Origin: an uncultured Dehalococcoidia bacterium
GTDB taxonomy: Bacteria; Chloroflexota; Dehalococcoidia; Lucifugimonadales; CAUZEB01
Assembly (NCBI GenBank): GCA_964431885.1
Contig: CAYSLK010000012.1
Coordinates: 1-53,439, forward strand
Length of the DNA: 53,439 bases
Reading direction: 5' to 3'
This document shows positions 5,438 to 48,347 of this stretch, piece after piece (position 1 is the first letter of the stretch; every line of letters starts with the position of its first letter). The notes beneath the pieces are model-generated. The model was given only the letters and a program-made list of their open reading frames with translations, ran no database searches and was not told the origin of the DNA. The translations under genes and the position numbers were made by a program.

Positions 5438-7222
5438 CTAATGTTTGGGAGCAGGGGTTATCTCAGTGTCCAAACTAAGTTGTCCCCGTTCTTTTCTCAT
5501 TAACTCTCTAGTCTTAGCTGTCCTGGCTAAATCTATTACCATAGTCTCAGATTCGACAATCACTCCATAATCCTCTTTTGCCTTACCAAAAGATATCTTT
5601 TCTTGTAAAAGGTCATTTAACACCGCTTCAGGGTCGCGATCAAGCGGGTCTCCATAGCCTCCGGCTCCTGCCTGTATCAGTCTGTAAACATCGTTTTTCT
5701 TCATGTCAAGTAAGAATTTAGAAGGCAGTAATCGATTCTCAGTATCAGGGTTGAGAAAACTATAAGTGCGTGTTCCTGGTTTTCCTCCTTGAGCGCCCCA
5801 TGGCAGAAATTTAGTTCTGTCAGATCGAATCTGTAGGGTCGCTTCTTCTTGTAACAGCTTATATTCACGTATCATACCTAATCCACCACGATGCTTTCCT
5901 GCTCCAGCGGAATCCTGAACATATCCATATTTAGTTATTAGTAAAGGCTGATCGGATTCTATAGTTTCAATATGGGTATTGTCAATATTGGTTATAGGAG
6001 CCGCAGCAACATATTCTCAGTCATCGAATGGAGTGCCTACGCGAGGTCCATCATTATTGAATTCAACAAATACGAAGGGTTTTCCGCCTGGAAAGTATCC
6101 ACCTATGCTAACACCTACTTCGCCACCTCCCCAGGCACCGGGTACTTGATCGGGAAGTGCTCTACTCATAGCTCCAAACACAGCCGAACCTATTCTGAAA
6201 CCCCCAACCCCTCGAGCTGCCACAGGCGCGGGATGTTGAGGATCGACATAACTCCCCGGCTCGGTTATAACTTTTATAGGACGGAAAAACCCAGTATTGC
6301 CCGGTATATTAGGATTAGTAAGACATTTAATTGCTGCATAAGTCGCAGATTTGGTAAAAGCCAAATTTGGATTTATGGAACCTTTCGCCTGAGGAGATGT
6401 GCCAGTGAAATCCACCTCCATTTCATCACCAGTAATTGTTACTTTAACTTTGATAGCTATGGATTCAGGGTTAATACCATCATCATCAATGTAGTCCGTA
6501 AATTCCCAAGAACCATTCGGTAACGATTCAATTTCTGCCCTTGTTAATCTTTCTGTATGGTCGATGATGTCCGTCATATAACCTTTTAGCGGTTCAGGTC
6601 CATACCCCTCAACCAGTCTAAGATAATCCTGTTCACCTTGTCGTAAGGCTGAAACTTGGGCAAGAATATCGCCCAGAACCTTATCAGGCACACGGACATT
6701 CTTAGTAATAATACGCCAGACCGCGCTATTGATTTCGCCTCTATCAAATAATTTAATCGGGGGAATCCTCAATCCTTCTTGATATATTTCAGTATTATCA
6801 CAGGCATTTCCGCCAGCGACCCGACCTCCAATATCTGTATGATGAGCTATCACACAAACCCAACCCATCAGCAATTCGTTATAGAAGACGGGCTTAAAAA
6901 GGAAGATGTCTGGCAAATGACTCGCACCCTCATACGGATCATTATTTGCAAATATATCCTCAGGATTAATATCGTCGCCGAATTGCGCGATTACTGCGTC
7001 TAAGGCCGGTTGCATAGCACCCATATGGAAAGGTAATGTCAGCCCTTGAGCAACCTGTTCTCCATCGGCATTAAAGATGGCAGTTGAAAAATCCATCCCA
7101 TCCTTAACGACTAGAGACCGTGCAGTTCTAACAACCGTAACAGCCATAGTATCAGCGGCACTGGCAAGAGAATTCTTTATTATCTCTCTGGTAACTGGAT
7201 CTAATGTCTGAGACTTACTCAC
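5438..7222 (-). CDS. Hydantoinase B/oxoprolinase-family protein, 594 codons, interrupted only by an in-frame TGA at 6017-6019 (possible Sec, readthrough or nonsense lesion)
   Basis: Track ORFs 6017..7222 and 5438..5875 are in the same frame (1785 nt, divisible by 3). I translated 5876-6016 as EYVAAAPITNIDNTHIETIESDQPLLITKYGYVQDSAGAGKHRGGLG. It is open, joins onto MIREYKLL... and contains the family DSxGAGxxRGGLG motif. The GTG start at 7222 is preceded by GAGG, and the stop is TAG. Confidence 0.8.
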
Positions 7223-7278
7223 TATAATACCTCTCTAATTTCCTGAAGTGGATACTAAAAGTAAAAACACCTATATCA

Positions 7279-8652
7279 CTAATTATGTTTTTTTAAAGTT
7301 ATGTTTTTCATTTCATCCAAAGATGTTTGCCATCCAGGAGGTACAACAGTTGTAGAATCATACTCCTCAATAATTAGTGGCCCCGGATTGACGCCATTTG
7401 CTAAATCTAATCTATCAATTACAGGAGTGTCGATCCAGCTATTCGCAGAGACGAAAAATACTTTCCTGGTTTGATTCTTGTGTTCGCGAGGCACGGAGGT
7501 GAATTCTATCCTATCAGGTACTCGCGGAGAGTCCGATATTCCTCTAGCCACTACTCTAATGTTGACTAATTGGTATGGATCCTGAGCACTATATCCATAG
7601 GTTTTCTCATGCTCACGATCGAATTCCACACCCAATGCTTCGACGGAATTAAGATTAAAATAATCATGCTCCATATTTACGGTGAGCTCGGAGGTTTGAC
7701 CAATGTATTTCATGTCAATTTGAGTGATTATCTGATGGTTATCTACGGAGAAGCCTTCTGCAGATAAGAGTCCCTTTCCTTGATTTCTAAGATCATTTAA
7801 TATTGAATTTGCCTCATCCAAATCCAATTCCGAAAATGCCTTAAAATAAGTCCGAACGAAATGATGCTCCACGTCTGCAAACAGGAGTCCAAAAGCACTA
7901 AACACCCCTGGTGAAGGAGGGATTATTATTTGAGTTATGTCAAGCATATCGGCGAGACCGGTTGCATGGATAGGACCTCCTCCTCCAAAGGCCGTTAGAT
8001 CGAATAGACGAGGGTCTCGTCCACGTTCGCTGGACACAGCCCGCAAAGCTCGAGCCATATTTGAATTAACAAGGAGATGGATACCACGAGCAGCTTCAGT
8101 ATCATTCAAACCAAGTGGGCCGCCTATCTTATCAGCAACAGACTGACGGGCTTTCTCTCCATTCAACGGGAATCCTCCGCCTAATAAATGTTGTGGATTA
8201 AGGTATCCCAGCATTACATTTGCATCAGTTACCGTAGGGTCTTCACCGCCATTGTCATAGCAGACCGGACCGGGAACCGCGCCTGCACTATGGGGACCCA
8301 CTTGTAAGGATCCTCCTCTATCCACCCAGGCTATACTTCCTCCACCAGAACTTACTTCAGCTATGTCTATAGCTGGCACTCGAAGTATATATCCGGAACC
8401 TTTGAGAAGCCTATGGCCGGAACTCATCCCTCCGCCAACTTCATAATCAGGAGCTCTAAGCATATCTCCATCCTCTATAATAGAGGCCTTAGCAGTTGTA
8501 CCTCCCATGTCGAACGTCATTAAATTAGGTTTCTCTAACCTTTTCCCTAACTGAAAAGCGCCTACCACACCTGCTGCAGGTCCAGATTCAATGCAATACA
8601 TAGGCTTATCGACTACAACTTCCACTGGAGCTAGTCCACCATTGGATTGCAT
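7279..8652 (-). pseudogene. Hydantoinase A/oxoprolinase-family gene, C-terminal (hydantoinase_A domain) part of a frameshifted reading frame
   Basis: The 457-aa product starts MQSNGGLAPVEVVVDKP, the family's conserved IMQSNGG entry into the ATPase domain. It overlaps the N-terminal fragment in a different frame (9394 and 8652 differ modulo 3). Confidence 0.8.
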
Positions 8653-9367
8653 TATCGTAAGTGGAACCTTGACTCCCTTTTTGCATTTTTATGCTCAGTT
8701 CCGTCAAATATTCCGCTACAACCGGTCTAACATAGGCGTTAATCACGGTAGTACTGGTTCGTTCATATTCCTTCATTTCAGGAAGAAGTTCACTCGAAAT
8801 GGATAAAACCAATTCAGGCATTATCGAATTTAGTCTAGCCACTATTTTTTGCTCGTGATCTGGATTCGCATAAGAATGCATAAGAGATATCGCCACCGAT
8901 CGTATATTTTGCTCCTTTAGAATAGCTGCTATCTTATCAACATCTTCCATTACGATAGGTTGCAGTACTTCACCTTTAAATGTGACCCTTTCTCTAACCT
9001 CGAAGCGAAGTCTTCGTTCCACCAGAGGTGGAGGCTTTTGATAGTACAAATCGTATAGAGTCGGGGTACGTAGCCTAGAAATCTCTAGTACATCTCTAAA
9101 ACCCTCAGTAGTAATTAATGCGGTTCTCTCACCCTTGCCTTCTAAGATAGCGTTAGTCGCCACAGTGAAACCGTGACTCAATTCAGAAATGTTCTCGGGG
9201 CCAATACCGAGCTCTTTAATGCCTTGGGCAAGACCCTCTAAGACCGCACGTCCATAATCGTCTGGAGTACTGGCAACCTTTTTCACTAATACGGTGCCAT
9301 CGTGCCCCAGGAAAACGACATCTGTAAACGTTCCTCCGATATCTGCTCCAGCTCTATATAAATCCAT
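8606..9367 (-). pseudogene. Hydantoinase A/oxoprolinase-family gene, N-terminal (Hydant_A_N) part of the same frameshifted reading frame
   Basis: It encodes MDLYRAGADIGGTFTDVV... (ATG at 9367 preceded by AAGGA; the track ORF extends to 9394). The frame is lost after ...ELSIKMQK at the A5 run (T5 on the plus strand, 8678-8682). Deleting one A restores MQKGVKVPLTIMQSNGGL. Confidence 0.8.
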
Positions 9368-9547
9368 CTTTATATCCTTTTGATAGAAGACCACGCTATG
9401 TTAATTTTAGTACGGGGCAAGCCCGCCAGTGAAGCTCCTAACCGAATTTTTATTAATTAGTTATGAATCTTATCACATGGTTGCTATTTCAATATATTAT
9501 CTCTTACCAAACGTTACATTGACTGCTCTAATCTATTAAATACTTCT

Positions 9548-10687
9548 CTATCGAAAATTATCATCATCATTCTTAGGTATTGCAACCGACTCCGTAAAAT
9601 CGGATTCCGGAGACATAACCAATTTGCGAATCGGATAGTTAATTTCTATCCCTTCTTGATTAAACCGGGCATATAAATTTTTAATGATCGCACTCTTTAT
9701 CGCGAAACTGGCAATACGGTCCATAGCTTGAAAGATAATAACGAAATTCACATTCGAGTCTCCAAATTCTGAGAATCGAACGACTGGTTCAAAATCTTTG
9801 ACCGCCAGTTCTGATTCATTGATGACTGTTTTAGTAACATCGATTGATATGTTCTCTACCTGCTCGAGGTCTGATTCATAACTAACTCCACATTCCACTA
9901 TACCGGTAAGGACTGGCGATGGAGTAGAATAGTTCGTCAAAATGCTATCTGTAAGCTTGTTATTAGGAATAATAACAAGATTGTTAAGCCTACTACGTAT
10001 TCTAGTACTTCTCCAACCTACGTCAACTACAAATCCCGCTAGACCGTTGTCTAGCTCTATGTAATCATTTTCCTTTATCTGTCCCTCAGTTACAACATAA
10101 GTCCCCGCAATGAAACTACTAAGACTAGGAGAGAGCGCCAATGCAACACCTAATCCACCTATTCCTAATCCTGCTAATAATGGGCTTATCGGAACAGTCA
10201 AGATATCTAAAATGATTAGTAGTCCTAACGTGTAGACTAATACGGGGAGAATTCTATTCACTATCGGGATAAATTTATCATCAAGAGTAGTGGTGGTTCG
10301 GGAAGCAAGTTCTTTCACATACCATGTCAACACACCTTGTAATGTTCGAGAGACACCATAAGTTATTACCGTCACAATTGAAATTGACCATATTCTCTGT
10401 ACCCATATCTTCATATCTCTAACCACATCGAAATATGGATCATCAATTTGCATTAAAGATACGATCCCCAGAGCCACACCAGAGAAAACGATCGAAAGCA
10501 TTATTGGACCTTTTACAGCACCAATAAGTTGAATATCTATACTTTCTGGATTTCGAATAGTGCGATACTTCAGGGTCAGACTTAGAATGATATTGGTTAT
10601 AACTGCGAATAAACTCATCACCGATAAAACGCCTAACGCAAATACCGGCCCCCAAATCAGTGATTCGGATATAGCCTCAGGTACCAT
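9548..10687 (-). CDS. MscS-family mechanosensitive ion channel, 379 aa
   Basis: It has an N-terminal multi-TM region followed by the MscS beta-domain pattern ...YIELDNGLAGFVVDVGWRSTRIRSRLNNLVIIPNNKLTDSILTNYS. Confidence 0.8.
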   Translation of the reverse strand: MVPEAISESLIWGPVFALGVLSVMSLFAVITNIILSLTLKYRTIRNPESIDIQLIGAVKGPIMLSIVFSGVALGIVSLMQIDDPYFDVVRDMKIWVQRIWSISIVTVITYGVSRTLQGVLTWYVKELASRTTTTLDDKFIPIVNRILPVLVYTLGLLIILDILTVPISPLLAGLGIGGLGVALALSPSLSSFIAGTYVVTEGQIKENDYIELDNGLAGFVVDVGWRSTRIRSRLNNLVIIPNNKLTDSILTNYSTPSPVLTGIVECGVSYESDLEQVENISIDVTKTVINESELAVKDFEPVVRFSEFGDSNVNFVIIFQAMDRIASFAIKSAIIKNLYARFNQEGIEINYPIRKLVMSPESDFTESVAIPKNDDDNFR

Positions 10688-10829
10688 CCTAGACCTCCAT
10701 AAATTGTTTTCTAAAAAGCTCGCATCTTTAAGCCAAGTATCCTAGATTAGTTTACCCTAGACCTAAATGATGAAGTACATAGACAAGCAGAATGTAATCA
10801 TGCACATAGGAAACTGTCAATATCCCTTT

Positions 10830-10849
10830 TAGAAAGACATGTCTTTCTA
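10830..10849. promoter_or_regulatory. Perfect 20-bp palindrome TAGAAAGACATGTCTTTCTA, candidate operator
   Basis: Read directly: the two 10-nt halves are exact reverse complements. It ends 14 nt upstream of the putative pheS -35 box, in the divergent mscS/pheS spacer, and neither strand has a flanking T-tract. Confidence 0.4.
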
Positions 10850-10863
10850 GAGCACATCTTTCC

Positions 10864-10893
10864 TTGACCACATTAAATAGGCAAACCTATAAT
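10864..10893 (+). promoter_or_regulatory. Sigma-70-like promoter for pheST
   Basis: TTGACC (10864-10869), an 18-nt spacer, then TATAAT (10888-10893). It lies about 40 nt upstream of the pheS ATG. Confidence 0.5.
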
Positions 10894-10934
10894 AAACTAC
10901 GCGTACATGCTATGGCTTGTGATTGAGGAATTTA

Positions 10935-11993
10935 ATGGAACATAACTCGGACATAACAGATATTACCAATCTAAGGGACCAGGCTCTGGAAGAACTTGGG
11001 TCAGCTAACATCTTAGAAGCTCTCGAACAATGGAGAATTACGTACCTAGGTCGCAAAGGCCGTCTCACAAATATTCTACGTGGACTTGGCTCTATGTCTC
11101 AAGATGATCGCCGGGCTATGGGCAAGGTGTCTAATGTTGTAAAAGCCATATTGGAAGAACAATATGAGATACGAAAGCGACATATCCATGCATCAGAACA
11201 TAGTGTACGCTCGTCTGACAGGGAAGAGATTGACATTACTCTACCAGGATGGCACAAACCAAGAGGAGGTCTGCATCCAACTTCTCGTATAGTGAGAGAA
11301 ATTTGTGACGCTTTCCGGTCAATGGGTTTTCAAATTGTCGAAGGACCAGAAGTTGAATGGGACCATTACAACTTCGAGATGCTCAATATACCAAAAAACC
11401 ATCCAGCCAGAGATATGTGGAACACTCTATGGATTGACCACACCAATTCCCTTGAAGAATATCCTATGTTATTGCGAACTCACACATCCCCAATGCAAGC
11501 ACGGACTATGGAAAAAAGTGATCCCCCTATTAGAGTAGTTGTCCCTGGAAAATGTTATAGATACGAGGCAACCGATGCGACCCACGAATGGCACTTTTAC
11601 CAGATAGAAGGTCTAGCGGTTGATAAAAATATAACGTTTGCAGACTTAAAGGGCACTCTATTTGAATTCGCAAGACAGCTTTTCGGGGAGGAAAGGAAGA
11701 TACGTTTCAGATGCGATTACTTCCCATTCGTTGAACCAGGCGTAGACATGTCGATAGACTGTTTTTCATGTGAAGGCAAAGGATGCAGGATTTGTAGTGA
11801 GACAGGATGGATAGAAATAATGGGTGCCGGAATGGTACACCCCAAAGTTCTGGAAGCCGTTGGGTATGATCCATTGATATATACTGGATTTGCATTTGGG
11901 ATGGGACCAGAACGAATCGCTATGCTTAAATATGGTATAGAAGACATACGTTTATTCTACTCTAACGATCTAAGATTCCTTAACCAATTTTAA
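10935..11993 (+). CDS. pheS: Phenylalanine--tRNA ligase alpha subunit
   Basis: PheS-like over the full length, with class II motifs (HPARDMWNT, FRCDYFPFVEPG, GAGMVHPKVL, GFAFGMGPERIAMLKYGI). The ATG at 10935 is preceded by GAGGAA; the track ORF starts at an in-frame TTG at 10923. Confidence 0.93.
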   Translation: MEHNSDITDITNLRDQALEELGSANILEALEQWRITYLGRKGRLTNILRGLGSMSQDDRRAMGKVSNVVKAILEEQYEIRKRHIHASEHSVRSSDREEIDITLPGWHKPRGGLHPTSRIVREICDAFRSMGFQIVEGPEVEWDHYNFEMLNIPKNHPARDMWNTLWIDHTNSLEEYPMLLRTHTSPMQARTMEKSDPPIRVVVPGKCYRYEATDATHEWHFYQIEGLAVDKNITFADLKGTLFEFARQLFGEERKIRFRCDYFPFVEPGVDMSIDCFSCEGKGCRICSETGWIEIMGAGMVHPKVLEAVGYDPLIYTGFAFGMGPERIAMLKYGIEDIRLFYSNDLRFLNQF

Positions 11994-12135
11994 AGGATTA
12001 GCGTTCCATTGATATGAATCGATATCTTTATTGTTATACCAAATTAAGGGATTTACTTAGGATCTATGTTCCTTTCTCTCATAGTGATAATTCAAAAATA
12101 CATATTCCCTATCAGTACCATTCAAGAGGCATAAC

Positions 12136-14613: not shown

Positions 14614-14702
14614 AGACCTATCTTAAATATTTTGTTGCTTACTAAATTCATGATACCAGTCTATGTAGATCTAACGAATCACGGGAATATGTCACCTTCT
14701 TG

Positions 14703-15752: not shown

Positions 15753-15943
15753 AAACTTCTATTATCTCCTCCATAATCTTTGAGATTAATGATACTTAAC
15801 TTCGACATCAGTAACCATTTAAATGGACTTCCTCGGATTATCTCGAAGCTAGAATTCATATTTTCTGTGTTTTCCTCATAATCCACACTAGGTATATTAT
15901 CATTGACGTCGTTAATAGTTAATGCTATGGTTCCGCCCAGCAT
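15749..15943 (-). CDS. Hypothetical 64-aa protein (weak call)
   Basis: Its TGA stop overlaps the ATG of the downstream PTER gene (ATGA), which suggests translational coupling. I see no recognisable motif, and the composition is unremarkable. Confidence 0.25.
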   Translation of the reverse strand: MLGGTIALTINDVNDNIPSVDYEENTENMNSSFEIIRGSPFKWLLMSKLSIINLKDYGGDNRSL

Positions 15944-16084
15944 AATAATAATCGTTTTTCATATATTTGAGAGGGTTTCTCTTTTATTACGCATATGACT
16001 ATTCACAGACTCTCGAGTACTAAGGCTTTGGCAGATGAAATGTTGTGATTCATTCGTGTAGTTTCGTATAGTTAAGGTGATTTT

Positions 16085-17122: not shown

Positions 17123-17151
17123 TTGGATACATCCCGTATAAGGAGGTACAT

Positions 17152-18882: not shown

Positions 18883-18887
18883 AATAA

Positions 18888-20964: not shown

Positions 20965-21600
20965 CTAGAGCAATGCACCTTTGGGCCAAGGAGGTTGTGG
21001 GCGCTTCAGTTCACCTATATAGGACCTGTCAGCAGATATAGCCATAAAATGTTTGAATGCCTCTATAGAATCTTTCTCAGGAGGTATGAAAGTCTTCAAA
21101 TAAGCTGCATGGCCATTTTTAAACAAGAAAGTTGGGGTACCAAACACACCATGGTTTTCAACTGCATCTTTGTGATCATCACCAATGATTTCAAGTGATT
21201 GAGGATTCATTATATCTCGTTTAAACTTAGTGATATCTAGCCCCACTTCTTCTGCTAAATCTAGCATGGGCTTTATTTCGTTCAAGGCTATTCTACCATC
21301 GCCTCCATGACGGGCCGTCAAAAGAGCTAGGTGAAATTTTTCAAAATTATCGGAACCTTGTTTTTTTGCTGCCTCACCTGACATAGCGGCTATAAGTGAA
21401 CGCCTTTGTGTTGGATCTGGTTGTTCCCAGACTTTCCAATCAGAACTATCCGCACTGTTAATTTGCTCTAGGCAGAAATTCTTCCAGGTCACATCCAGAC
21501 TGGTTCCATAAACACTTTTTACTCTATTCAGCCACACGGCTGCATTGTATACCCATGGTCAGGCATAATCGCCATAAACTGCTAAAGTTATTTTATCCAT
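20965..21600 (-). CDS. DsbA-family thioredoxin-fold protein, probable selenoprotein (Sec at codon 14, TGA 21559-21561), 211 aa
   Basis: The track ORF 20965..21537 begins at an internal GTG. The same frame continues upstream as MDKITLAVYGDYA-[TGA]-PWVYNAAV from the ATG at 21600, which is preceded by AGGAGAGAG. YGDYAUPWVY aligns with the DsbA/FrnE-type DxxCPxCY active site, and the cis-Pro loop GVFGTPTF is present. A SECIS-like hairpin lies downstream. Confidence 0.7.
21526..21545 (-). promoter_or_regulatory. SECIS-like hairpin in the DsbA-family mRNA
   Basis: The mRNA reads AU-G-CAGCC-GUGU-GGCUG-A-AU: a 5-bp GC-rich stem plus two outer A-U pairs across one mismatch. The 4-nt loop starts with G, and its first nucleotide is 22 nt after the UGA (21 nt intervene). 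Confidence 0.5.
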
Positions 21601-23934: not shown

Positions 23935-25674
23935 TTATCCCAACCGAACGTCTAGAACGGCAGCTTTACCAGCTCTCACTTCACTCAAACATCTCTCAAG
24001 TGCAGTCTTTAGTTGTGCGGGCTTATCGACCATTTCTCCATACGCTCTGCAAGCTTGTGCAAGTAAGGCAAAATCTACAGACGGTCCTAATTCCATACCT
24101 ACCCAATTATTCGTTCTCTTAGCATAACTATCAGGATAACCAGCATTCAGGGACACTCGCGTGGCATTATGAATTTGATTGTTGTAAATAACGGTAAGAA
24201 AGGGCGCATTATGAACGTCAGAAGCCCACAGTGTTGAAGTCGGACACCCAAATATGAATGCTCCATCACCCACTGTTGCTAGAACCGTACTCCCTTGATC
24301 TGCTAATTTAACTCCCATAGCTGCCCCCAGGCCCCATCCTAAACTTGATCCTCCACTCCTAAAATAAGTGCCTGGTTTACTACGTCTAACATAATTAGAA
24401 ACGTGTTTAGAATTTGTGACACATTCATCTACGACAACAGTGTTCTCATCCATTATTTCATTTATACAATAACTGAGCCATTCGGGAGTAATTTTGTTAC
24501 TTTGCTCATGGCTTTGAGCAAGAGCGACAGATTCCATATATTCCTTTTCGTGATTTTCTCGTATAAGTTGATATCGTTCATCAACTCTAGCACTATCTGA
24601 TGGTTCCATTTTGCTGTTAATAGCATCTATCAGTAAAGGTATCGCTTTAGACGAATCAGCATGCACAATGTGATCATAGGGAAAAACCCATAGTGGAATC
24701 GTAGGCTTTATTGGATCGATATCAATATGGAATATTTTTGCCTCTGTCATAGGTGAACCGATTGCTGGAATATATGGAACATCCTGATCAACACTAAGAA
24801 TGACATCAGCTGTCTCGATAAGAGATTGAGCACTTACACCGGCGTACATAGGATGAGACGTGGGAAAATTCATGTGCACTGGTTCAGAGACAACCGGACA
24901 CCCCACGATTTCAGCTAATGCTACCATTGACGCCACAGAAGATAGATTCCTTCCTGACTGACCAGTAATAACTAAGGGGCTTCGGGCATTAACTAACGCA
25001 TCAGCAATTTCTTCTACTGCGGACGGATCGGCTTGCGGCGTTACCGGAGAGCTAAACCGATTAGATAGTGGAATGGTAACCTCTTTTATTTGCTCCATCA
25101 AAACTTCTCTCGGCAAAGTAATATAGACTGGACCGCACGGCTCGGATGACGCAACTTGAAAGGCCCTCTGCACGATATGCTGGATATTATCCGGTCGCCG
25201 AGCCTCATAATCCCACTTTGTGAAATTACGAAGGATACCAGCTTGATCTAACTGCTCTTGCGTCCAGTGAATATTCATAGATCGTGTACCTGGCATTTCC
25301 CCGTCGAACGTAAGAGGTGCTCTACCAGCACAAATTACGATACCGGCTCGACCTCTCTGAGCATCATGCATATTGCCACCTAGATTTAATGTTCCGGCAT
25401 CGACATGTACAAGGACCACTTGAACTTCTTTTGTAGCAACGAAATATCCATGAGCTGCTGCTACAGCCGTAGCTTCATCAGGGCACAAAATCACCCGTGG
25501 TGTGATCCTTCCTTGTGATTCAAATTTTGCAATTGCCTCTTGAATTGGAAAGGTATCAGTCCCTGAGTTGATGAATAGAATCTTAACTCCATTGGCATTA
25601 AGTACTTCTATAAAAACATCAGCTCCACATTCCCCAGACAATTTTCGCCCGCCCTTATATTTATCGATAGCCAT
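23935..25674 (-). CDS. Thiamine-diphosphate-dependent enzyme (acetolactate synthase large subunit/benzoylformate decarboxylase-like)
   Basis: The ThDP-binding motif GDGAFIFGCPTSTLWASDVHNAPFLTVIYNN (GDG...NN) is present, and the three-domain length is typical of the family. The ATG at 25674 is preceded by GAGGAAAG; the track ORF extends to a GTG at 25692. Confidence 0.8.
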   Translation of the reverse strand: MAIDKYKGGRKLSGECGADVFIEVLNANGVKILFINSGTDTFPIQEAIAKFESQGRITPRVILCPDEATAVAAAHGYFVATKEVQVVLVHVDAGTLNLGGNMHDAQRGRAGIVICAGRAPLTFDGEMPGTRSMNIHWTQEQLDQAGILRNFTKWDYEARRPDNIQHIVQRAFQVASSEPCGPVYITLPREVLMEQIKEVTIPLSNRFSSPVTPQADPSAVEEIADALVNARSPLVITGQSGRNLSSVASMVALAEIVGCPVVSEPVHMNFPTSHPMYAGVSAQSLIETADVILSVDQDVPYIPAIGSPMTEAKIFHIDIDPIKPTIPLWVFPYDHIVHADSSKAIPLLIDAINSKMEPSDSARVDERYQLIRENHEKEYMESVALAQSHEQSNKITPEWLSYCINEIMDENTVVVDECVTNSKHVSNYVRRSKPGTYFRSGGSSLGWGLGAAMGVKLADQGSTVLATVGDGAFIFGCPTSTLWASDVHNAPFLTVIYNNQIHNATRVSLNAGYPDSYAKRTNNWVGMELGPSVDFALLAQACRAYGEMVDKPAQLKTALERCLSEVRAGKAAVLDVRLG

Positions 25675-25719
25675 CGTGTTTTCTTTCCTCACTTCCTTTG
25701 TCCAACATAAGTAATCGTA

Positions 25720-27417
25720 TCATTTTGTAGGTACCACGGGCAGCAGAATATGCGAAGGATGTAAAGAATCATGGAACACATTTTGATGTGCGATCTGAAT
25801 TTGATCATTTTCCCCGAATTTGTGGCCCGTGTTTGGATTACGATCGAATCGAGGGAAATTACTGCTGGATATATCCACCCTAATACGATGCCCTTTCAAG
25901 AAAACATTACTTGTCGGCCAAAGATCAATGGTAAATTCATATGTTTTCCCAGACTCAAGTAATTGTTGCTTAGATGTGGATTCCCGATATCGGGCGCGAA
26001 TAATTCCGTCGCAAAGATTAACGGCATAGCCGTTTGGATGAACATCAACTAACTTGGCTGTGAAATCTGTATCTGTCACATTTGTACTGGCGAACAATTT
26101 CACAACTACGGGCCCAGTTACTTCAATTTCATCATCTAAGGCGTTTGAAGTGTAAACTAACACGTCATTCCTGTACTCAACAGAACGTTGATCGAAAGCA
26201 CCCCAATCTACAATCTCAGGATTGCAGCAATTGCAACCACCTTTGGTCGGGACGGGGGATTGTGGATTATAAACGAAATGGTCTTGTGGTTCTTCTCCAG
26301 GTTCAGTTGTAGATAGGCCACCACTACCCAAGAGGGAATTTGCCTCCCCGTCACTATGGAAATAGTAAGGAGTATACACTGTCCTATTCAAGGGCCATTC
26401 ATTTTCATCACGCCATTTGTTTGTTCCCATCACGAAGAGTTTAAGAGGAGCATCTTTCTCAGCTCCGTTGTTTTTCCCTTTTAGCCAGCGGTCGAACCAT
26501 CGCAATTCAATTTGCAAAAGATCTAACACCGACTCCTTTCCGAAATCAACTTCTCCAGCGTGGGTCATTTTACTCGCTGTGTGTACCCAGGGTCCCACAA
26601 CAGCTCTCTGATTGTTTTTCGCCAGATCCGAACCACCGTTTGCTCGCATTCCTACAAAGTTATTAAATGTGCCAGCCGTGAAGAAATCATACCATCCTCC
26701 AATTTGAAGAATCGGGATTTTAATATCTTGGTACCGTTCTTTATTGGCTAAGGATTTCCAGTAGTCATCATAATCCGGGTGATCTATCCAATCTTGAAAA
26801 AATTGGACATCCTTACCAGCTGCCTTAGCTATATCTCTCAATGATAGTACAGAGAAAAGTTGATCCCAATTATAGATGCTTATATCTTGCCATGTACGTC
26901 CGGCCATACGAAAGGTCCACGTAGCATTCCAATTTAATTGAAATGCGCCTCCTTGGTATTGTGGAGCCTCGTAGAGATTGTCTCCTATAACTCGTGGAAC
27001 AATTGCCTTTAAGTGCGTACTGCCACCGGCAGCTGCCTGCCACTGTACATTTCCAACATACGAACTACCCACCATGCCAATGTTCCCATCGCACCATACT
27101 TGAGATGCTATCCATTCGACCGAATCATGACCATCTCTGAATTCATTAATCCATGGGTAAAAGTCCCCGTCTGAATCATTTCTACCTCTAGTGTCTTGAG
27201 CTACGAAAGCATAACCGTGCTGGGCAAAGAAAATCGCGCTATCTACCATAGCTTCGGCCGTGTTATCGTATGGAGTACGAGAAAACACTACAGGCAAGGG
27301 TCCTTCTTTCTCCTCAGGGAAGAAAATATCCGCGGAAAGTCTTATCCCATCTCTCATGGGCATTCCAACGTTGTATCTGGCGGTCACTCCAGCGGGTAAA
27401 AACACATTCTGAGACAT
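25720..27417 (-). CDS. CocE/NonD-family (S15 X-Pro dipeptidyl-peptidase-like) alpha/beta hydrolase
   Basis: Nucleophile-elbow region GNIGMVGSSYVG, TPYDN near the N-terminus, and a C-terminal jelly-roll region. The ATG at 27417 is preceded by GGAGG; the track ORF extends to 27471. Confidence 0.8.
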   Translation of the reverse strand: MSQNVFLPAGVTARYNVGMPMRDGIRLSADIFFPEEKEGPLPVVFSRTPYDNTAEAMVDSAIFFAQHGYAFVAQDTRGRNDSDGDFYPWINEFRDGHDSVEWIASQVWCDGNIGMVGSSYVGNVQWQAAAGGSTHLKAIVPRVIGDNLYEAPQYQGGAFQLNWNATWTFRMAGRTWQDISIYNWDQLFSVLSLRDIAKAAGKDVQFFQDWIDHPDYDDYWKSLANKERYQDIKIPILQIGGWYDFFTAGTFNNFVGMRANGGSDLAKNNQRAVVGPWVHTASKMTHAGEVDFGKESVLDLLQIELRWFDRWLKGKNNGAEKDAPLKLFVMGTNKWRDENEWPLNRTVYTPYYFHSDGEANSLLGSGGLSTTEPGEEPQDHFVYNPQSPVPTKGGCNCCNPEIVDWGAFDQRSVEYRNDVLVYTSNALDDEIEVTGPVVVKLFASTNVTDTDFTAKLVDVHPNGYAVNLCDGIIRARYRESTSKQQLLESGKTYEFTIDLWPTSNVFLKGHRIRVDISSSNFPRFDRNPNTGHKFGENDQIQIAHQNVFHDSLHPSHILLPVVPTK

Positions 27418-27480
27418 TAGATTTCCTCCTGAATATAAATCCTTATCAATCAGTGGCCGGACACTCACCATAAGCGAATG

Positions 27481-33616: not shown

Positions 33617-33886
33617 CTGGTCGTGCTAGGTGGGGAGATAGCGGTGCCCTATACTCGCAATCCGCTCTAGCGAGACTTAACTCCTCCCGGAGGTTTTTTT
33701 TCAGATCCTCTTTCCATGAAGGCCTGTGTTGAAAATCAGATCCTACGCGGCGGTAACCTGTGAATCCCGTCAGGTCCGGAAGGAAGCAGCGGTAAACAGT
33801 TATTCCGGGTGCCGTAGGCCAAACTGGTTTGAGCAGCTTTCACGAGATATGTCTCTGAAAAGAATCGAACGGAGGTGCACGACCTG
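33617..33886 (+). ncRNA. ffs: Signal recognition particle RNA, long (Bacillus-type, Alu-domain-containing) form, ~270 nt
   Basis: The domain IV core GUCAGGUCCGGAAGGAAGCAGCGGUAA lies at about 33770-33795. The 5' Alu-domain sequence GGUCGUGCUAGGUGGGGAGAUAGCGGUGCCCUAUACUCGCAAUCCGCUCUAGCGAG closely parallels my recollection of B. subtilis scRNA. The 5' GGUCGUGC pairs with the 3' GCACGACC (33877-33884). The ends are approximate. Confidence 0.85.
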
Positions 33887-38415: not shown

Positions 38416-38522
38416 GATGGCCCCTAATATAGGGATGTAAATGAATACAGCAAACTGTATACCTGGATTTTTGAAGTCAGGAAAGTGAAAACCAACTCGA
38501 GCATAGGTCAGGTCACCTGTAA

Positions 38523-41345: not shown

Positions 41346-41434
41346 TATTTGATCGACAAAGACTACCTGTTGTATACTGCAAAGAATTTTAAATGCACGA
41401 CGATAAAAGAGCATATTTTATCGAGTTCTCCTAA

Positions 41435-42286: not shown

Positions 42287-42360
42287 TTATACTTTACTGA
42301 TTAAACACCATCTGACCAATGTTGAAGGCGCACTTTTCCTGTGATATTCTACCCTAGAGT

Positions 42361-42437
42361 CGGGGAGTGGCGCAGTTTGGAAGCGCACCTGCATGGGGTG
42401 CAGGGGGTCGCTGGTTCAAATCCAGTCTCCCCGACCA
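42361..42437 (+). tRNA. tRNA-Pro, anticodon GGG, with encoded CCA
   Basis: I folded it by hand. Acceptor stem CGGGGAG/CTCCCCG, D stem GCGC/GCGC, anticodon stem CCTGC/GCAGG with loop AT-GGG-GT (G37), T arm GCTGG-TTCAAAT-CCAGT, discriminator A, then CCA. Total 77 nt. Confidence 0.93.
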
Positions 42438-42654
42438 TATATATTCTTGCTTTACCTTTTGTTTCCTATTTATTTTAATTACCAATATTTGATGCTGAGC
42501 ATAAATTAATACAAATTCCAGAGGACATTGGTCTTAGAAGATTTGATGACCTTGCTAATAGAGAATAGCAGTGATTCCGCAATGGAAAACTCAGAATATA
42601 TAAGATTAAGAGGATCACCATTAGTTAACATATTAGACCTTTAGAGGATATTTA

Positions 42655-43956
42655 TTGAATCAATATTCCCACAGCCATAGACACTACGGCGAGGCAATGC
42701 TAACCGTCGAAGATGCGTTAGCACGCATCCTGAGTTTCTTTCATGTCCTAGAGACGGAATACAAACCTATTCTTGATTCGCTGGGTCAAGTTCTTGCCGA
42801 CGATGTGATGTCCTTACAAGACATCCCTTCAATGGCCAACTCTGCGATGGACGGGTATGCTATACAGGCTGAAAATGTCAAAGGAGCATCACACGATTCC
42901 CCCATATCATTGGACATAATCGGTCATGTCGCTGCCGGGGAATTACCTAAAGTTACGGTCAGCCCCGGTACTGCTGTACGTATAATGACTGGCGCCCCGT
43001 TGCCTGTAGGTGCCGACTCTGTCGTTCCATTTGAAGACACAGATGAGCTAACTAGAAGAGAGACTCAGCAGGATATGTCAAAAATATCCGTTAATTTGGA
43101 GGTCGAAAAAGGCTCTGATGTGCGTCCTGCGGGGCAAGATATAGAAAACGGTCAATTAGTGCTCACGAGAGGCACAATCCTACGACCGTACGAAATAGGA
43201 GTTCTCGCATCTCTCGGACACGCGCAAGTCAAAGTTATCCGACGCCCTATCGTCGGCATACTTTCAACGGGAAATGAACTTATGGAGCCAGGCGACACAT
43301 ACGATCCTTCGAAGATATACAACAGCAACGGATTTAGTGTGGCCGCCGCGGTAATACGTTATGGAGGGCTGCCTAAGCAGATTGGCATTGCAAGAGACAA
43401 TTTAGATTCTATTGAAACTATGCTGCGCAAGGGTTTAGAGTCTGATATACTCATCACTTCTGCTGGAGTATCTAAAGGTGACTATGACATGGTAAAGGAT
43501 GTACTATCTTCACACGGCGATATCGACTTCTGGTCTGTAAAGATGCGGCCCGCCAAGCCGCTGGCTTTTGGTGTTCTCAGAAGTGATACGAAGAAACGCG
43601 TACCTCTCCTTGGCCTACCAGGCAATCCTGTTAGTGCTATCGTGGCGTTTGAACAATTTGCCAGGCCATCACTGTTTAAGATGATGGGTAAGACTAGATA
43701 TGCTAAGCCTAGCGTGAAAGCAATATTAGAAGAACCAATCTACAACACGGATAATCGTAGAGTATACGCAAGGGTCATTGTGGAAAAGAAAAATGAAGTC
43801 TATCACGCCCGATTAACAGGCCATCAAGGCTCAAACCTGCTCACGTCTATGGCCAATGCTAATGGTTTAGCCATATGTCCTGAAGATCAAGCCATAAAAA
43901 AAGCAGGAGAGTTTGTAGAAGTTCAGATGTTAGACTGGCCGGAGGAAGTATTTTAA
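42655..43956 (+). CDS. moeA: Molybdopterin molybdenumtransferase MoeA
   Basis: SAMDGYA, TGAPLPVGADSVVPFE, SAGVSKGDYD and GLPGNPVSA motifs. The start is uncertain: TTG at 42655 or the in-frame ATG at 42697. Confidence 0.88.
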   Translation: MNQYSHSHRHYGEAMLTVEDALARILSFFHVLETEYKPILDSLGQVLADDVMSLQDIPSMANSAMDGYAIQAENVKGASHDSPISLDIIGHVAAGELPKVTVSPGTAVRIMTGAPLPVGADSVVPFEDTDELTRRETQQDMSKISVNLEVEKGSDVRPAGQDIENGQLVLTRGTILRPYEIGVLASLGHAQVKVIRRPIVGILSTGNELMEPGDTYDPSKIYNSNGFSVAAAVIRYGGLPKQIGIARDNLDSIETMLRKGLESDILITSAGVSKGDYDMVKDVLSSHGDIDFWSVKMRPAKPLAFGVLRSDTKKRVPLLGLPGNPVSAIVAFEQFARPSLFKMMGKTRYAKPSVKAILEEPIYNTDNRRVYARVIVEKKNEVYHARLTGHQGSNLLTSMANANGLAICPEDQAIKKAGEFVEVQMLDWPEEVF

Positions 43957-44378
43957 TGGAAAATCAAGAACGTCCCAACGAGGAAAATTGTGTACAGCAA
44001 CGATTCGTTATTGATATCGATAATGCTGAAGATCTAAACAGATCTGCTGCCTTAATGATATTAAATCGCATGAGTTACGTTAGCCAACAAATATTTGATG
44101 AAGCTACTCCATCATCTGAAAAGGCGAAAGAGTACGTAGATCGTATTGTAGACTACGACAGTCAGCAATCAGATTATCTTCTACCAGACACTCCTTTGAA
44201 AGAAGCCACTTTTAGGGTTCTACTTGCTTCAGGCAACAAACCAATGAGTGCCGAAGAGATTAGTGAAGTTCTATCGGAAAAGTGGTCTATGACAGCATAT
44301 CCAAGAGATTTATCGCCCAAAGTGATTCAAAGACTCTTAGAACACAGTGACTCGTACTGTATCATCAAAACATCATGA
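43956..44378 (+). CDS. Hypothetical acidic protein, 140 aa
   Basis: Its ATG overlaps the moeA stop (TAATG), which suggests coupling. I recognise no family motif. Confidence 0.5.
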   Translation: MENQERPNEENCVQQRFVIDIDNAEDLNRSAALMILNRMSYVSQQIFDEATPSSEKAKEYVDRIVDYDSQQSDYLLPDTPLKEATFRVLLASGNKPMSAEEISEVLSEKWSMTAYPRDLSPKVIQRLLEHSDSYCIIKTS

Positions 44379-44463
44379 ACAATATAGATTATATATTGTT
44401 TGTCTGATCTATTTGATTTATGCACATAGATGAACAGAATTAGACTGAAAGCGGCGGGCGCAT

Positions 44464-44607
44464 CTATGCATCCTCTTTAGGTTTTCTTCTCTTTCCCACG
44501 ACCTCTACAGCCTCCGAAACAACCATAGGAGAGTGTATTTCCACCTTCTTACTCGTCTTTTTCTTAAGCTTTTTGGCCTCGCGCTTGGGAACATGTCCTC
44601 TAGCCAT
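44464..44607 (-). CDS. Hypothetical small lysine-rich basic protein, 47 aa (below the ORF-track length cutoff)
   Basis: My translation is MARGHVPKREAKKLKKKTSKKVEIHSPMVVSEAVEVVGKRRKPKEDA. The ATG at 44607 is preceded by GGAGG plus 8 nt. A TTTACA-17-TAGACT promoter-like pair lies upstream. TAG stop. Confidence 0.45.
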   Translation of the reverse strand: MARGHVPKREAKKLKKKTSKKVEIHSPMVVSEAVEVVGKRRKPKEDA

Positions 44608-45027
44608 CTAAAAATCCTCCCTCAAAAACTACGAAGTTTACCATGTGTTGCAAAGTCTAGGATAAAGCCCTCAATGTGTAAAGAGAAATCACTTTTATAT
44701 TTTACTTAGAAATAAGTGCCCGTCTACGTTAAAACGGTATGTTACACTGACCTACCTGTATTGTATAAGGGGAAACCATCTCGCATATCTGGAAACCGTA
44801 TCGGAAACCTTATAGCGCTTTCTACAGGATCATATGTTCTCAATTTCGCTTCACATCACCATTTAGAACACACTCATGCTAAAATGAGCTAACACTCTGG
44901 ATAAACGTCTGACGAAATGCTCATACCTCTGATTGTGATCTAAGTTAATTAACAACATCGATCTGATTATCTAGGTCACTCATTGTTCGCTAAAGGTCTG
45001 TCAAACAGACTCTTTAAAACAGGCGTA

Positions 45028-45057
45028 TTGTCAATATGAGAAGTGATTGATTATAAT
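45028..45057 (+). promoter_or_regulatory. Sigma-70-like promoter for ilvE
   Basis: TTGTCA (45028-45033), an 18-nt spacer, then consensus TATAAT (45052-45057). The RBS AAAGGAG lies upstream of the ATG at 45090. Confidence 0.5.
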
Positions 45058-45089
45058 TAGCTACACTTTCAAAAAAAGGAGCCTACTTC

Positions 45090-46022
45090 ATGGGTGAATC
45101 GCTCGCATTTTTTCGTGGACGAATTGTTCCGCTATCGGAAGCCAAAGTAAGTGTTACAACTCATGCCTTGCATTATGGTACAGCTGTGTTCGAAGGCATT
45201 AGGGGAAACTGGAATGAGAAACACAAATCCATGTATGTTTTCCGAATGCGAGAACACTATGAACGATTCCTGCAAGGCTGTAATATAATGATGCTCGATA
45301 TTCCCTACAATGTCGAAGATCTGTGTAAAATTACCAAGGACTTAATTCAAAGCTGTGGCTACAAGGAAGATGTTTACATCCGACCTCTAGCATACAAGAG
45401 TGAGGAACGGGTAGCTAATCTAAAATTACAGGAATTAGAAAGTGATTTCACATTAGTTATTGTGCCCTTCGGCGCATATATAGAAACGGATGGCGCCATT
45501 AATTGTTGCACTTCATCTTGGAGAAGAATGGATGATACCATAATTCCTCCACGAGTCAAGATTTCTGGTCATTATGTTAATAGCATCTTGGCTAAAACTG
45601 AAGCCGTACTATCTGGATTTGACGAGGCTATAATGTTGAATCAAGACGGCTCCGTATCTGAAGGTTCTGGAGAAAATCTTTTCTTTATCTCTAACGGAAT
45701 CATGAACACACCTCTAGTCGCCGATAACAACTTAACTGGTATTACCAGAGACTGTGCTATCAAGCTAGCGCAAAATGAGCTTAACATTCCAGTTGTAGAA
45801 CGTACTATCAGACGTAGCGAACTCTATTTAGCTGATGAAGTCTTCCTAACCGGAACCGCTGCGCATATCACCCCTGTTGGCCAATTAGATAGTAGGCCAA
45901 TTGGAAATGGCGGAGTTGGACCCATCACCAAGCAGATAAAAGATTTGTACGTTAAAATTATTCGTGGCAATGACGTTAAGTATCTTGATTGGTGTACTCA
46001 AGTAGCTTTAGAAGAAATATAG
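45090..46022 (+). CDS. ilvE: Branched-chain amino acid aminotransferase (class IV), 310 aa
   Basis: LHYGTAVFEGIRG, EGSGENLFF and LTGITR motifs, with typical IlvE length. Confidence 0.9.
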   Translation: MGESLAFFRGRIVPLSEAKVSVTTHALHYGTAVFEGIRGNWNEKHKSMYVFRMREHYERFLQGCNIMMLDIPYNVEDLCKITKDLIQSCGYKEDVYIRPLAYKSEERVANLKLQELESDFTLVIVPFGAYIETDGAINCCTSSWRRMDDTIIPPRVKISGHYVNSILAKTEAVLSGFDEAIMLNQDGSVSEGSGENLFFISNGIMNTPLVADNNLTGITRDCAIKLAQNELNIPVVERTIRRSELYLADEVFLTGTAAHITPVGQLDSRPIGNGGVGPITKQIKDLYVKIIRGNDVKYLDWCTQVALEEI

Positions 46023-46050
46023 AATTAAAGTTAGTCCTACATCTAAAACA

Positions 46051-46491
46051 ATGTTTACATTCACTATAGACTATCTCATCCTAATTATTCTTGCATCAAT
46101 AGGCGTCATCCAATTAGGAGCTCTATATGGTGGCCTTAAAGGTCTTCTTTTCTCCAAATCCATAGTCTTTACTCATTTTGTCGGTTTCAGCTTACCAGTC
46201 ACCGCCTTCACGTGGTTCTTTATGACAGACTCTAGAAACATTAATGATTATGCTGGAGGACTAGACTCCAATATCCAGGCTCTGTTGTTCTTTTTGGGAG
46301 CTTTAACAGGTTGGATCCTTACGACAATCCTTTCATTCATTATCAATATTCACATGAAAAGGAAAGATCTCTCTCCATTTGAGGGGCTAGATTCGCTTAA
46401 AAAGACTAATTATTTCAATGACCTAATCTTCAACCTAAAATATTGGCGGTCCAATTGGCGTCTACAGATGAAGCGTTATTTGTTGCGATAA
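46051..46491 (+). CDS. Hypothetical integral membrane protein, 146 aa
   Basis: There are three to four hydrophobic segments and no recognisable family motif. Confidence 0.5.
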   Translation: MFTFTIDYLILIILASIGVIQLGALYGGLKGLLFSKSIVFTHFVGFSLPVTAFTWFFMTDSRNINDYAGGLDSNIQALLFFLGALTGWILTTILSFIINIHMKRKDLSPFEGLDSLKKTNYFNDLIFNLKYWRSNWRLQMKRYLLR

Positions 46492-47036
46492 ACGGATTAG
46501 TAGGTCAATCTCACCTGGTAGATGAGATAGTCACTTTGATAGTCAGTGATTATCTCGTACCTGCAGGACTGGGTCTATTACTGCTTGCCATGTGGTTTAT
46601 CGGAAAAAGCCAGAACATAAGAGAAGAATATCAAATAGGAGTCTTCGTGTGTTTAACATCCATGGCATTGTCGAATCTTGCCGTTCTGGTGATCAACATC
46701 TTCTATTCCAGAGCAAGGCCATTTATCGACCACGATGTTAATTTATTGTTTTATGAACCAACAGATCCATCGTTTCCTTCGAACTCAATAGCAGCGACAT
46801 GTGGCATTGCCATGGGTATTTGGGGAGTAAACAGACGACTTAGTATTATGCCTCTGATACTAGTAGGGTTCTATGGACTGGCACGGATATATGCAGGTAT
46901 ACACTATCCCCTTGACATAATAGGAGGAGCTGCAATCGCAGCACTGGTAACGTTCTTTGTTTTCAAATTAAGCAAATTAGTTAGACCCCTATTGACCGGC
47001 GTTCTCAGGATTGGTCGGATACTGTGTCTTGCCTAA
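46443..47036 (+). CDS. PAP2-family phosphatase (undecaprenyl-diphosphatase/lipid phosphatase-like)
   Basis: PAP2 motifs are present: YSRARPF (KX6RP-like), PSFPSNS, and ARIYAGIHYPLDI (SRX5HX3D). The start is TTG at 46443 or 46455 and overlaps the upstream gene. Confidence 0.7.
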   Translation: MAVQLASTDEALFVAINGLVGQSHLVDEIVTLIVSDYLVPAGLGLLLLAMWFIGKSQNIREEYQIGVFVCLTSMALSNLAVLVINIFYSRARPFIDHDVNLLFYEPTDPSFPSNSIAATCGIAMGIWGVNRRLSIMPLILVGFYGLARIYAGIHYPLDIIGGAAIAALVTFFVFKLSKLVRPLLTGVLRIGRILCLA

Positions 47037-47145
47037 TTACAAAAGCTTGATACATATTTGCCAACTATTCAAACATGAGGAATAATCTTATATCATCTCT
47101 AGAAACTGTTTTTATTACAAAAAGCAAATTAAGGAGGACATCAGA

Positions 47146-47913
47146 GTGAATTCTGTAAGTAATAATAGGGTAGCGATCATAACGGGGGCAGGAAGTGGTA
47201 TTGGTAAACATACTGCCCTAAGATTTCTAGAAGATGGGTACAACGTTGTGCTGGCAGGGCGTCGTTTAGAAACTCTCGAATGTACGAAAAGGGACTCTAA
47301 GCATAATGGATCAAGGGTGTTATTAATACCTACAGACGTAAGCGACCCTAATTCCATAAGACAACTATTCAGCAAAACAGCTGAGCAATATGGCCGATTA
47401 GATGTTTTATTCAACAACGCCGGTATCGGTTCGCCACGTGATATTTTATTCGAAGATCTCGATTTTGCGCAATGGAAGGCCGTGGTTGACACTAACCTTA
47501 CAGGTTCATTCATTTGCTCACAGGAAGCATTTAAATTAATGAAATCTCAAACGCCAATGGGAGGTCGAATAATTAACAACGGTTCGATATCTGCGCACGT
47601 GCCTCGTCCCAATTCAGCACCTTACACTTCCACCAAACACGCCATCACCGGCCTAACGAAAGCCACTTCATTAGACGGGCGTAAATACAACATTGCCTGC
47701 GGGCAAATAGACATAGGAAACGCCCATACCGCTATGACTGCACGGTCTGAATCTGGTACTGCCCAAGCCAACGGCACAATCATGATTGAACCCACTATGG
47801 ACGTCGATAACGTTGCCAAGGCCGTATTGTATATGGCAAGTCTTCCATTAGACACCAATGTTCAATTTATGACAGTTATGGCTACAACAATGCCATACAT
47901 AGGCCGGGGTTAA
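47146..47913 (+). CDS. Short-chain dehydrogenase/reductase, 255 aa
   Basis: [10 protein letters not shown] cofactor motif, NNAG, and the catalytic YTSTK (YxxxK). The GTG start is preceded by AAGGAGG. Confidence 0.85.
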
Positions 47914-47978
47914 CAGATATACTATAAGAGACGCCATCACTAAATTCAGCTAACCAGCCAGTCACACAAAGTAACGCT

Positions 47979-47998
47979 TATTCTACTGACGTAGAATA
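47979..47998. terminator. Hairpin TATTCTAC-TGAC-GTAGAATA between the convergent SDR and Spx/ArsC-like genes (weak terminator candidate)
   Basis: Read directly: an 8-bp AT-rich stem with a 4-nt loop. It is followed by only a short T-rich stretch on the plus strand. Confidence 0.25.
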
Positions 47999-47999
47999 T

Positions 48000-48347
48000 C
48001 TATTCGAGGATTTGCCGTATGCCTTTCAAGTCCGCTCCAATAATTATTTTCTCTCTATAGTAAACTATAGGCCGCCTGATCAACCTTGGTTCCTTAAGCA
48101 TAAGGGGCAACAAATCTTCGTCTGTCAAATGAGCTTTGGAAACGTTCAGTTTCTTAAAAGAAGGACTCCGCCAAGAGAATATTTCGCTTGGACTAATTAT
48201 TTCTAATAATTCTGTCAGTTCATCTTCTGTAAAACGTTCTTTGAAAAAGTCCCTCTCTATTACACAGATCTCGTGTTGTGACAGCAACGCTCTCACTTTC
48301 TTGCATGAGCTTCATTTATTCCAGGTGTAAAAATGCGCTACAGGCAT
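48000..48347 (-). CDS. Spx/ArsC/YffB-family thioredoxin-fold protein, probable selenoprotein with a UxxC motif (Sec at codon 12, TGA 48312-48314), 115 aa
   Basis: The track ORF 48000..48296 starts at an internal GTG. The same frame continues upstream as MPVAHFYTWNK-[TGA]-SSCKKVRALL from the ATG at 48347, which is preceded by AAGGAG plus 6 nt. FYTWNKUSSCKKVRALLSQHEI aligns with Spx [22 protein letters not shown], placing the UGA on Cys10 of CxxC. WRSPSFKKL and RRPIV motifs are also conserved. A SECIS-like hairpin lies downstream. Confidence 0.75.
48278..48296 (-). promoter_or_regulatory. SECIS-like hairpin in the Spx/ArsC-like mRNA
   Basis: The mRNA reads GUGAGAGC-GUU-GCUGUCAC: eight stem positions with seven Watson-Crick pairs and one G-G mismatch. 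The loop starts with G, and its first nucleotide is 24 nt after the UGA (23 nt intervene). Confidence 0.5.

Follow-up and report, generated by a model that had tools for sequence, protein, structure and literature searches.

Two families of selenoproteins reported from marine metagenomes are the closest described relatives of the genes analyzed here. The selenoproteome from Global Ocean Sampling (GOS) metagenomes includes one family called "DsbA 3" (pfam01323, motif UxxV) and another called "Arsenate reductase 2" (cd03032, motif UxxC) (Zhang & Gladyshev 2008; PMC2398784). A review from 2026 lists a "DsbA-like protein form 2" (PF01323, motif DxxUP) (PMC13188914). The database BSepDB admits species that have SelA, SelB and SelD, and its ten largest bacterial selenoproteomes include those of two genomes from Dehalococcoidia, which have 49 and 46 genes (PMC13326102). 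The same source reports that annotation pipelines truncate selenoprotein genes systematically (PMC13326102). We analyzed a contig of 53,439 nucleotides (CAYSLK010000012.1) from an uncultured Dehalococcoidia bacterium, which we call the window and in which UGA interrupts three genes in frame. Two of these genes, encoding a DsbA-like and an ArsC/Spx-like protein, very probably use the UGA at a redox-active Cys position to insert selenocysteine (Sec), and the UGA of the third gene, hyuB (hydantoinase B), is not a recoding site. Both Sec genes belong to families that were already described, and the lineage was already described as rich in Sec. The finding is thus already known in kind.

An initial annotation of the window, made from its sequence alone, had located the in-frame UGAs at 6017-6019, 21559-21561 and 48312-48314 and had proposed site-specific Sec insertion as the economical explanation. 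Translation at these positions, which are all on the minus strand, does reveal a TGA in frame in each case (3/3). The proposal holds up for the DsbA-like and ArsC/Spx-like genes on the basis of the Cys column, the conservation of the TGA and the downstream hairpins, and it fails for hyuB, where the column is an invariant Gly.

The DsbA-like and ArsC/Spx-like genes

Open reading frame (ORF) callers give only a 190-aa part of the DsbA-like gene, at 20965-21537. Its features, including a hairpin of the selenocysteine insertion sequence (SECIS) type, are as follows.

20965-21600, minus strand: putative DsbA-like selenoprotein gene of 211 codons; its ATG (21600-21598) comes after a AGGAGAGAG-like ribosome-binding site
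21559-21561, minus strand: UGA predicted to encode Sec, codon 14, in the context GDYA-U-PWVY, where D-Y-A-U-P-W-V corresponds to DxxUP / UxxV
21529-21542, minus strand: SECIS-type hairpin CAGCC-GUGU-GGCUG, 17-30 nt past the UGA, with 21 nt from the UGA to the loop

The predicted protein matches Pfam family PF01323 (DSBA) with a score of 40.4 bits (cut-off 25.6). We scanned one genome per GTDB species for this gene and retrieved 80 loci, all of which are in Dehalococcoidia, SAR202 or Chloroflexota. In 80/80 genomes the tblastn match spans residues 1-210 and runs through the UGA, and the codon itself is TGA in every one of these species representatives (80/80). A 13-codon N-terminus with its own ATG precedes the TGA and is conserved in the 80 loci. 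Database proteins present a different picture, in that 115 of the best 120 homologues are N-terminally truncated (about 190 aa) and start after the UGA. They typically open with MWLDRV, which corresponds to an internal GTG start. The five full-length homologues among these 120 (P0003, P0007, P0031, P0047 and P0059) have a Cys at the UGA column, as part of C-P-W/Y.

The stem of the DsbA hairpin is 99% paired across 74 distinct sequences, compared with 2-61% for controls in which the pairing partner was slid. Synonymous entropy in codons +5 to +11 (N-A-A-V-W-L-D) is 0.1-0.64 bits, as against 1.4-2.3 bits in flanking four-fold codons. This low synonymous entropy over the hairpin codons suggests a constraint at the RNA level inside the ORF. 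We also considered a longer lower stem, in which a Pro codon would pair with an Arg codon, and rejected it after a check by eye found no covariation. Judged by the Cys column, the conservation of the UGA and the stem-loop downstream of it, the gene at 20965-21600 is a convincing candidate for a bacterial selenoprotein gene.

The C-termini of the DsbA-like proteins (window positions 20968-21006; loci L002-L081) have an almost invariant GELKRPQPPWPKG motif that lies outside the Pfam DSBA match.

For the ArsC/Spx-like gene, ORF callers likewise give only a 98-aa part, at 48000-48296. Its features are these.

48000-48347, minus strand: putative ArsC-family, Spx-like selenoprotein gene of 115 codons; its ATG (48347-48345) comes after a AGGAAGGAG ribosome-binding site
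48312-48314, minus strand: UGA predicted to encode Sec, codon 12, in the context WNK-U-SSCK, where U-S-S-C corresponds to UxxC
48278-48296, minus strand: SECIS-type hairpin (stem of 8 bp; loop of 3 nt, starting with G), 16-34 nt past the UGA, with 23 nt from the UGA to the loop

The predicted protein scores 62.3 bits against Pfam family PF03960 (ArsC; cut-off 24). Of 75 metagenome loci, 73 have TGA at this codon and the other two (L091 and L129) have TGC. The upstream codons, the ATG and the ribosome-binding site are conserved in frame across the 73 loci, and an identical TGA, ATG and AGGAAGGAG recur in six contigs that represent the same strain but come independently from different samples. 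As in the DsbA-like gene, the short coding segment upstream of the UGA is conserved at the protein level and exhibits synonymous variation. Most of the best 120 database homologues (109) are again N-terminally truncated, at about 98 aa, and start after the UGA. Among the full-length homologues, Cys is at the UGA column in all but three, which have Trp (P0126, P0133 and P0134). These three are most likely gene calls made with translation table 4, in which TGA is read as W, and not true Trp variants.

The solved structures nearest to the ArsC-like protein are those of Spx (1Z3E and 6GHB; E = 5e-18), and in the alignment the UGA is opposite Cys10, in the CxxC switch. The ArsC-like protein reaches 72.3 bits with the Spx/MgsR model TIGR01617, just under the cut-off of 75.05 for membership, and 35.7 bits with the NCBIfam model NF041106, "ArsC family (seleno)protein", whose cut-off is 85. 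Both UGAs had been placed on a redox-active Cys by the initial annotation, and the Cys residues in the full-length homologues, together with the Spx alignment, bear this out.

The ArsC hairpin is supported by covariation. Across 62 distinct sequences, 95.2% of the cells in the stem are paired; slid controls reach 32-68%, and none of 500 shuffles reaches the observed value. Double-sided changes occur at four of the eight pairs (CG/UA, GC/AU, GC/AU and AU/CG; 73 cells). With the redox-Cys column, a conserved UGA and a covarying SECIS stem-loop, 48000-48347 also makes a convincing candidate bacterial selenoprotein gene. The similar spacing of the two hairpins, with loops 21 nt (DsbA) and 23 nt (ArsC) from the UGA, is as initially annotated.

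We propose that the window derives from a marine Dehalococcoidia bacterium (SAR202-type, Chloroflexota) and has two ordinary bacterial selenoprotein genes, in each of which the UGA at the nucleophilic redox Cys would be read as Sec. SelB carrying Sec-tRNA(Sec) would bind the short hairpin within the ORF, 21-23 nt downstream. The products would be small cytoplasmic thioredoxin-fold proteins in which a selenol takes the place of the attacking thiol. In the DsbA-like product this selenol would be in a U-x-x-V motif, without a resolving Cys, and the U-x-x-C motif of the Spx-like product could form a selenenylsulfide couple.

Several observations weigh against Sec insertion at these two sites. When each hairpin is folded as a single sequence, its energy is no better than that of shuffled sequences (not significant; z = +0.5 for DsbA and -1.5 for ArsC). 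Support for the hairpins therefore comes from comparison over 80 and 62 sequences, and not from the single-sequence fold. A permissive Rfam scan of the whole window found no match to a SECIS family for either hairpin. The DsbA stem is nearly invariant, and so exhibits conservation with hardly any covariation. The window's own ArsC stem has a G.G mismatch in the middle (48282 and 48292, alignment pair 23-33), which it has in common with the 74%-identical locus L083; in the remaining 60 sequences this pair is GC, AU or GU. Finally, neither a Sec machinery gene nor tRNA-Sec turned up in the window or among the fetched loci. The absence of selA, selB, selD and tRNA-Sec from the window had been noted in the initial annotation, and ARAGORN found no tRNA-Sec in 161 loci (715 kb). 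Sec decoding in this genome is suggested by its relatives and by the literature on the class.

One way to dispense with Sec is to take both UGAs as true stops, with each gene reduced to the shorter ORF that callers begin at an internal GTG. This is how the best database homologues are mostly annotated (115/120 and 109/120). However, proteins shortened in this way would be missing both the active-site motif and the thioredoxin fold's first beta-strand, and true stops do not account for the 11-13 upstream codons, the ATG and the ribosome-binding site that are conserved in frame in 80 and 73 loci. The Cys forms are full length, and a conserved hairpin follows the UGA. We therefore consider true stops to have only a very slim chance of being correct. 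A slim chance also remains for the idea that the UGA is decoded as Cys, Trp or Gly, whether by a suppressor tRNA or by partial reassignment. The W at the site in the three database homologues mentioned above would fit this idea, but those entries are most simply explained as translation table 4 calls. Moreover, the sites are the exact redox Cys positions, the hairpins have the spacing of bacterial SECIS elements and TGA is the stop codon of at least six complete genes in the window. The class is also listed among Sec-utilizing bacteria (PMC13326102).

The use of TGA as a stop is apparent throughout the window. The 42 main ORFs stop at TAA (21), TAG (12) or TGA (9); the lesion in hyuB and a doubtful ORF of 82 aa are counted among the nine TGA stops. 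TGA terminates at least six genes, namely rnc and the genes for an epimerase, an S15 peptidase, a class-III aminotransferase and an FGGY kinase, as well as rsmA. In each of these six, the Pfam profile is complete just ahead of the TGA. An ORF of 140 aa (43956-44378) also stops at TGA, and has no Pfam match. A global reassignment of UGA (codes 4 or 25) is rejected, because at least six complete genes stop at TGA. Here we concur with the initial annotation, which had regarded a global reassignment as unlikely and had listed rsmA, the epimerase gene and the FGGY kinase gene (called glpK) among the genes with an ordinary UGA stop; rnc and the S15 peptidase and aminotransferase genes can be added.

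Our search for further Sec genes consisted of a six-frame scan for pairs of ORFs split by a single stop, together with a reading of the intergenic gaps in which TGA was treated as a sense codon. The scan found no additional credible Sec gene in the window, and the gaps contained nothing protein-like. The junctions at TGA codons at 47547, 28651, 17104, 33919, 34703, 35620 and 12546 were rejected, as the stretch ahead of each TGA is either junk or overlaps with real genes or with the RNA of the signal recognition particle (SRP). A naive scan also yields a read-through ORF of 1,180 codons at 23935-27471, which was rejected because its Pfam domains belong to two distinct genes.

These two genes, which encode an S15 X-Pro dipeptidyl-peptidase and a thiamine-pyrophosphate enzyme (23935-27471, minus strand), are in one frame and are separated by a TGA and 9 codons. 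The RNA genes found in the window are a large SRP RNA (33621-33882) and a tRNA-Pro, with no others. The SRP RNA is on the plus strand directly upstream of rsmA, and is a full-length large bacterial type with an Alu domain (RF01854, 178.6 bits).

The UGA in hyuB and the adjoining hyuA

The third in-frame UGA is in a gene of the hydantoinase B/oxoprolinase family, and the adjoining hyuA is disrupted as well.

5438-7222, minus strand: hyuB, hydantoinase B/oxoprolinase family, 594 codons, with TGA at codon 402 (6017-6019), which is not a Sec site
5973-6039, minus strand: patch with 10 substitutions seen in this contig only, of which 6 are G>T and 4 are C>A in the gene's orientation, causing 9 amino-acid changes that include Gly402 (GGA>TGA)
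8679-8681, minus strand: site of a 2-nt deletion in hyuA, which splits the gene into ORFs at 8606-9394 and 7279-8652

The initial annotation regarded hyuB as otherwise intact and as a Sec candidate. If all three UGAs encoded Sec, the window would have an exceptional density of selenoproteins. The frame is indeed open on either side of the TGA, and PF02538 covers residues 8-526 and so spans it. However, the UGA column is Gly, not Cys, in 120/120 homologues. Two contigs of the same strain from other assemblies (L168 and L169) have GGA at the site. The contig L169 (ENA assembly ERZ767019) corresponds to window positions 5422-7386 and differs at 10 positions, all of which are in 5973-6039; the other 1,898 aligned bases have zero differences. 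The protein encoded by L169 (P0369, in the same 90% cluster) matches the window's HyuB at 585/585 residues outside the patch. The TGA is thus one of 10 clustered G:C>T:A changes, which also destroy eight other conserved residues. No SECIS-like hairpin was found at the expected position past this UGA (-7.7 kcal/mol, z = -0.6), and the selenoprotein reviews that we searched list no hydantoinase or oxoprolinase family. We regard Sec at all three UGAs as next to impossible, and L169 and P0369 refute it for hyuB. The UGA in hyuB is a lesion specific to this contig, and it replaces an invariant Gly.

A comparison with a more distant relative leads to a similar picture of the patch. Relative to L001, whose protein is 95% identical, codons 395-417 have nine non-synonymous changes, all of which are G>T or C>A and at codon positions 1 or 2. 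Outside the patch, by contrast, 103 of the 124 differences are at third positions. We roughly estimate the chance of finding ten differences within 67 of 1,965 nt to be of the order of 1e-12, and this clustering suggests that the patch is the result of a single local event. An exact look-up of the truncated 401-aa HyuB product found no record of it elsewhere. Mutagenesis by a diversity-generating retroelement was considered as a source of the patch and rejected, since it is G and C that have changed here, and not A.

The hyuA deletion is in an A-rich run. The missing bases are present in L001 (92% identical) and in L168 (99.4% identical), and L168 encodes an intact HyuA of 696 aa. A programmed frameshift was therefore rejected, given that in so similar a contig the two bases are present and the gene is whole. 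The frameshift points in the same direction as the patch, namely to an error or a private event and not to recoding. A further 1-nt indel relative to L168 is located at 7241, in the spacer between hyuA and hyuB.

The patch in hyuB is most likely a consensus or sequencing error or, if not, a single private mutational event. We favor an error because the changes are of the single class G:C>T:A, and artefacts of damage or base calling typically take the form G>T and C>A. Alternatively, the patch and the hyuA deletion could be real mutations, in which case both genes of hyuAB would recently have become pseudogenes in the cell or population that was sampled. The presence of two lesions within a single operon would also fit real operon decay, which counts against an error. 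Likewise, the rest of the 6.4-kb comparison with L168 has only scattered single-base differences, and the contig, being 53 kb long, was not assembled at very low coverage throughout. On the other hand, a cluster of ten same-class substitutions within 67 nt, where the remaining 1,898 aligned bases have none, is unlike neutral decay, and the 2-nt deletion is in an A-rich run. On balance, a pseudogene pair is a possibility to be taken seriously, if a somewhat doubtful one. Whatever the origin of the lesions, the annotation of hyuB and hyuA should mark probable sequence errors or disruptions, and not recoding.

Selenoprotein density and annotation

With hyuB excluded, the window has two Sec genes per roughly 42 ORFs. 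The initial annotation had counted two to three candidates, and had taken this for a high density that implies a large selenoproteome. The corrected number does not speak for an unusually large selenoproteome, and it is compatible with the counts of 46-49 genes published for some Dehalococcoidia genomes. In genomes of roughly 3 Mb, a size seen in complete Dehalococcoidia chromosomes among the scanned genomes, these counts amount to about one Sec gene per 60-65 kb, so that two in 53 kb are unremarkable.

The accompanying claim that ORF callers mis-annotate such genes proved well founded. The problem is systematic, in that about 90-95% of the database homologues of both families are N-terminally truncated. 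It is also a known problem, which BSepDB and the NCBI selenoprotein models already address. The two genes truncated by the callers should be annotated as selenoproteins. More generally, an in-frame UGA in a conserved gene is a Sec candidate only if the homologues have Cys at that column and the UGA recurs in relatives. For hyuB, it was a near-identical contig that revealed the UGA as a local lesion.

Comparison with known selenoproteins, Spx and SECIS elements

By its PF01323 match and its motif, the predicted DsbA-like protein appears to be a member of DsbA 3 / form 2; this match was made by description, and the reference entry of the family is MDP6049977.1. The two are alike in belonging to PF01323, in having a single Sec within DxxUP and UxxV, and in their marine origin. 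In both, the Sec is near the N-terminus, at the position of the first Cys of CxxC. They differ in one label, as the review assigns form 2 to a "crotonase/enoyl-CoA hydratase family", whereas the Pfam matches of the window's protein are to DSBA and thioredoxin families only.

The predicted ArsC-like protein resembles "Arsenate reductase 2" in its PF03960 match and its N-terminal U-x-x-C. We take cd03032, to which that family was assigned, to be the Spx subgroup of the ArsC family. The family of the window's protein, like "Arsenate reductase 2", is widespread in marine and other metagenomes. A difference is that the window's protein is under the cut-offs of the Spx/MgsR and NF041106 models.

Spx of Bacillus subtilis (1Z3E, 6GHB), a regulator that binds RNA polymerase and has a CxxC redox switch, is of the same fold family. 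U12-x-x-C15 in the window's protein corresponds to C10-x-x-C13 in Spx, and the RRP motif near the C-terminus is conserved. The window's protein is shorter, however, with 115 aa and no C-terminal tail, compared with 131 aa in Spx. It also has a two-residue gap at the Spx segment "DG". This segment includes Gly52, which is needed for binding RNA polymerase. Given the gap and the missing tail, a function as a regulator is not established for the ArsC-like protein. The U-x-x-C protein could conceivably be a selenium-based redox sensor that regulates transcription, in which a selenenylsulfide replaces the disulfide switch, and not an enzyme. We consider this unlikely, because the tail and the "DG" segment of Spx are lacking. 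If it were true, Chloroflexota and the other lineages of the metagenome loci would share a widespread regulator that contains Sec.

Both hairpins resemble the SECIS element of the E. coli fdhF type in being stem-loops within the ORF, directly 3′ of the UGA, with a G that opens the apical loop. Search tools for bacterial SECIS elements use a range of 16-37 nt, and the loops in the window, 21-23 nt past the UGA, are within it. Unlike the fdhF-type element, the hairpins have short stems (5 and 8 bp) and no Rfam match, and their binding by SelB is putative.

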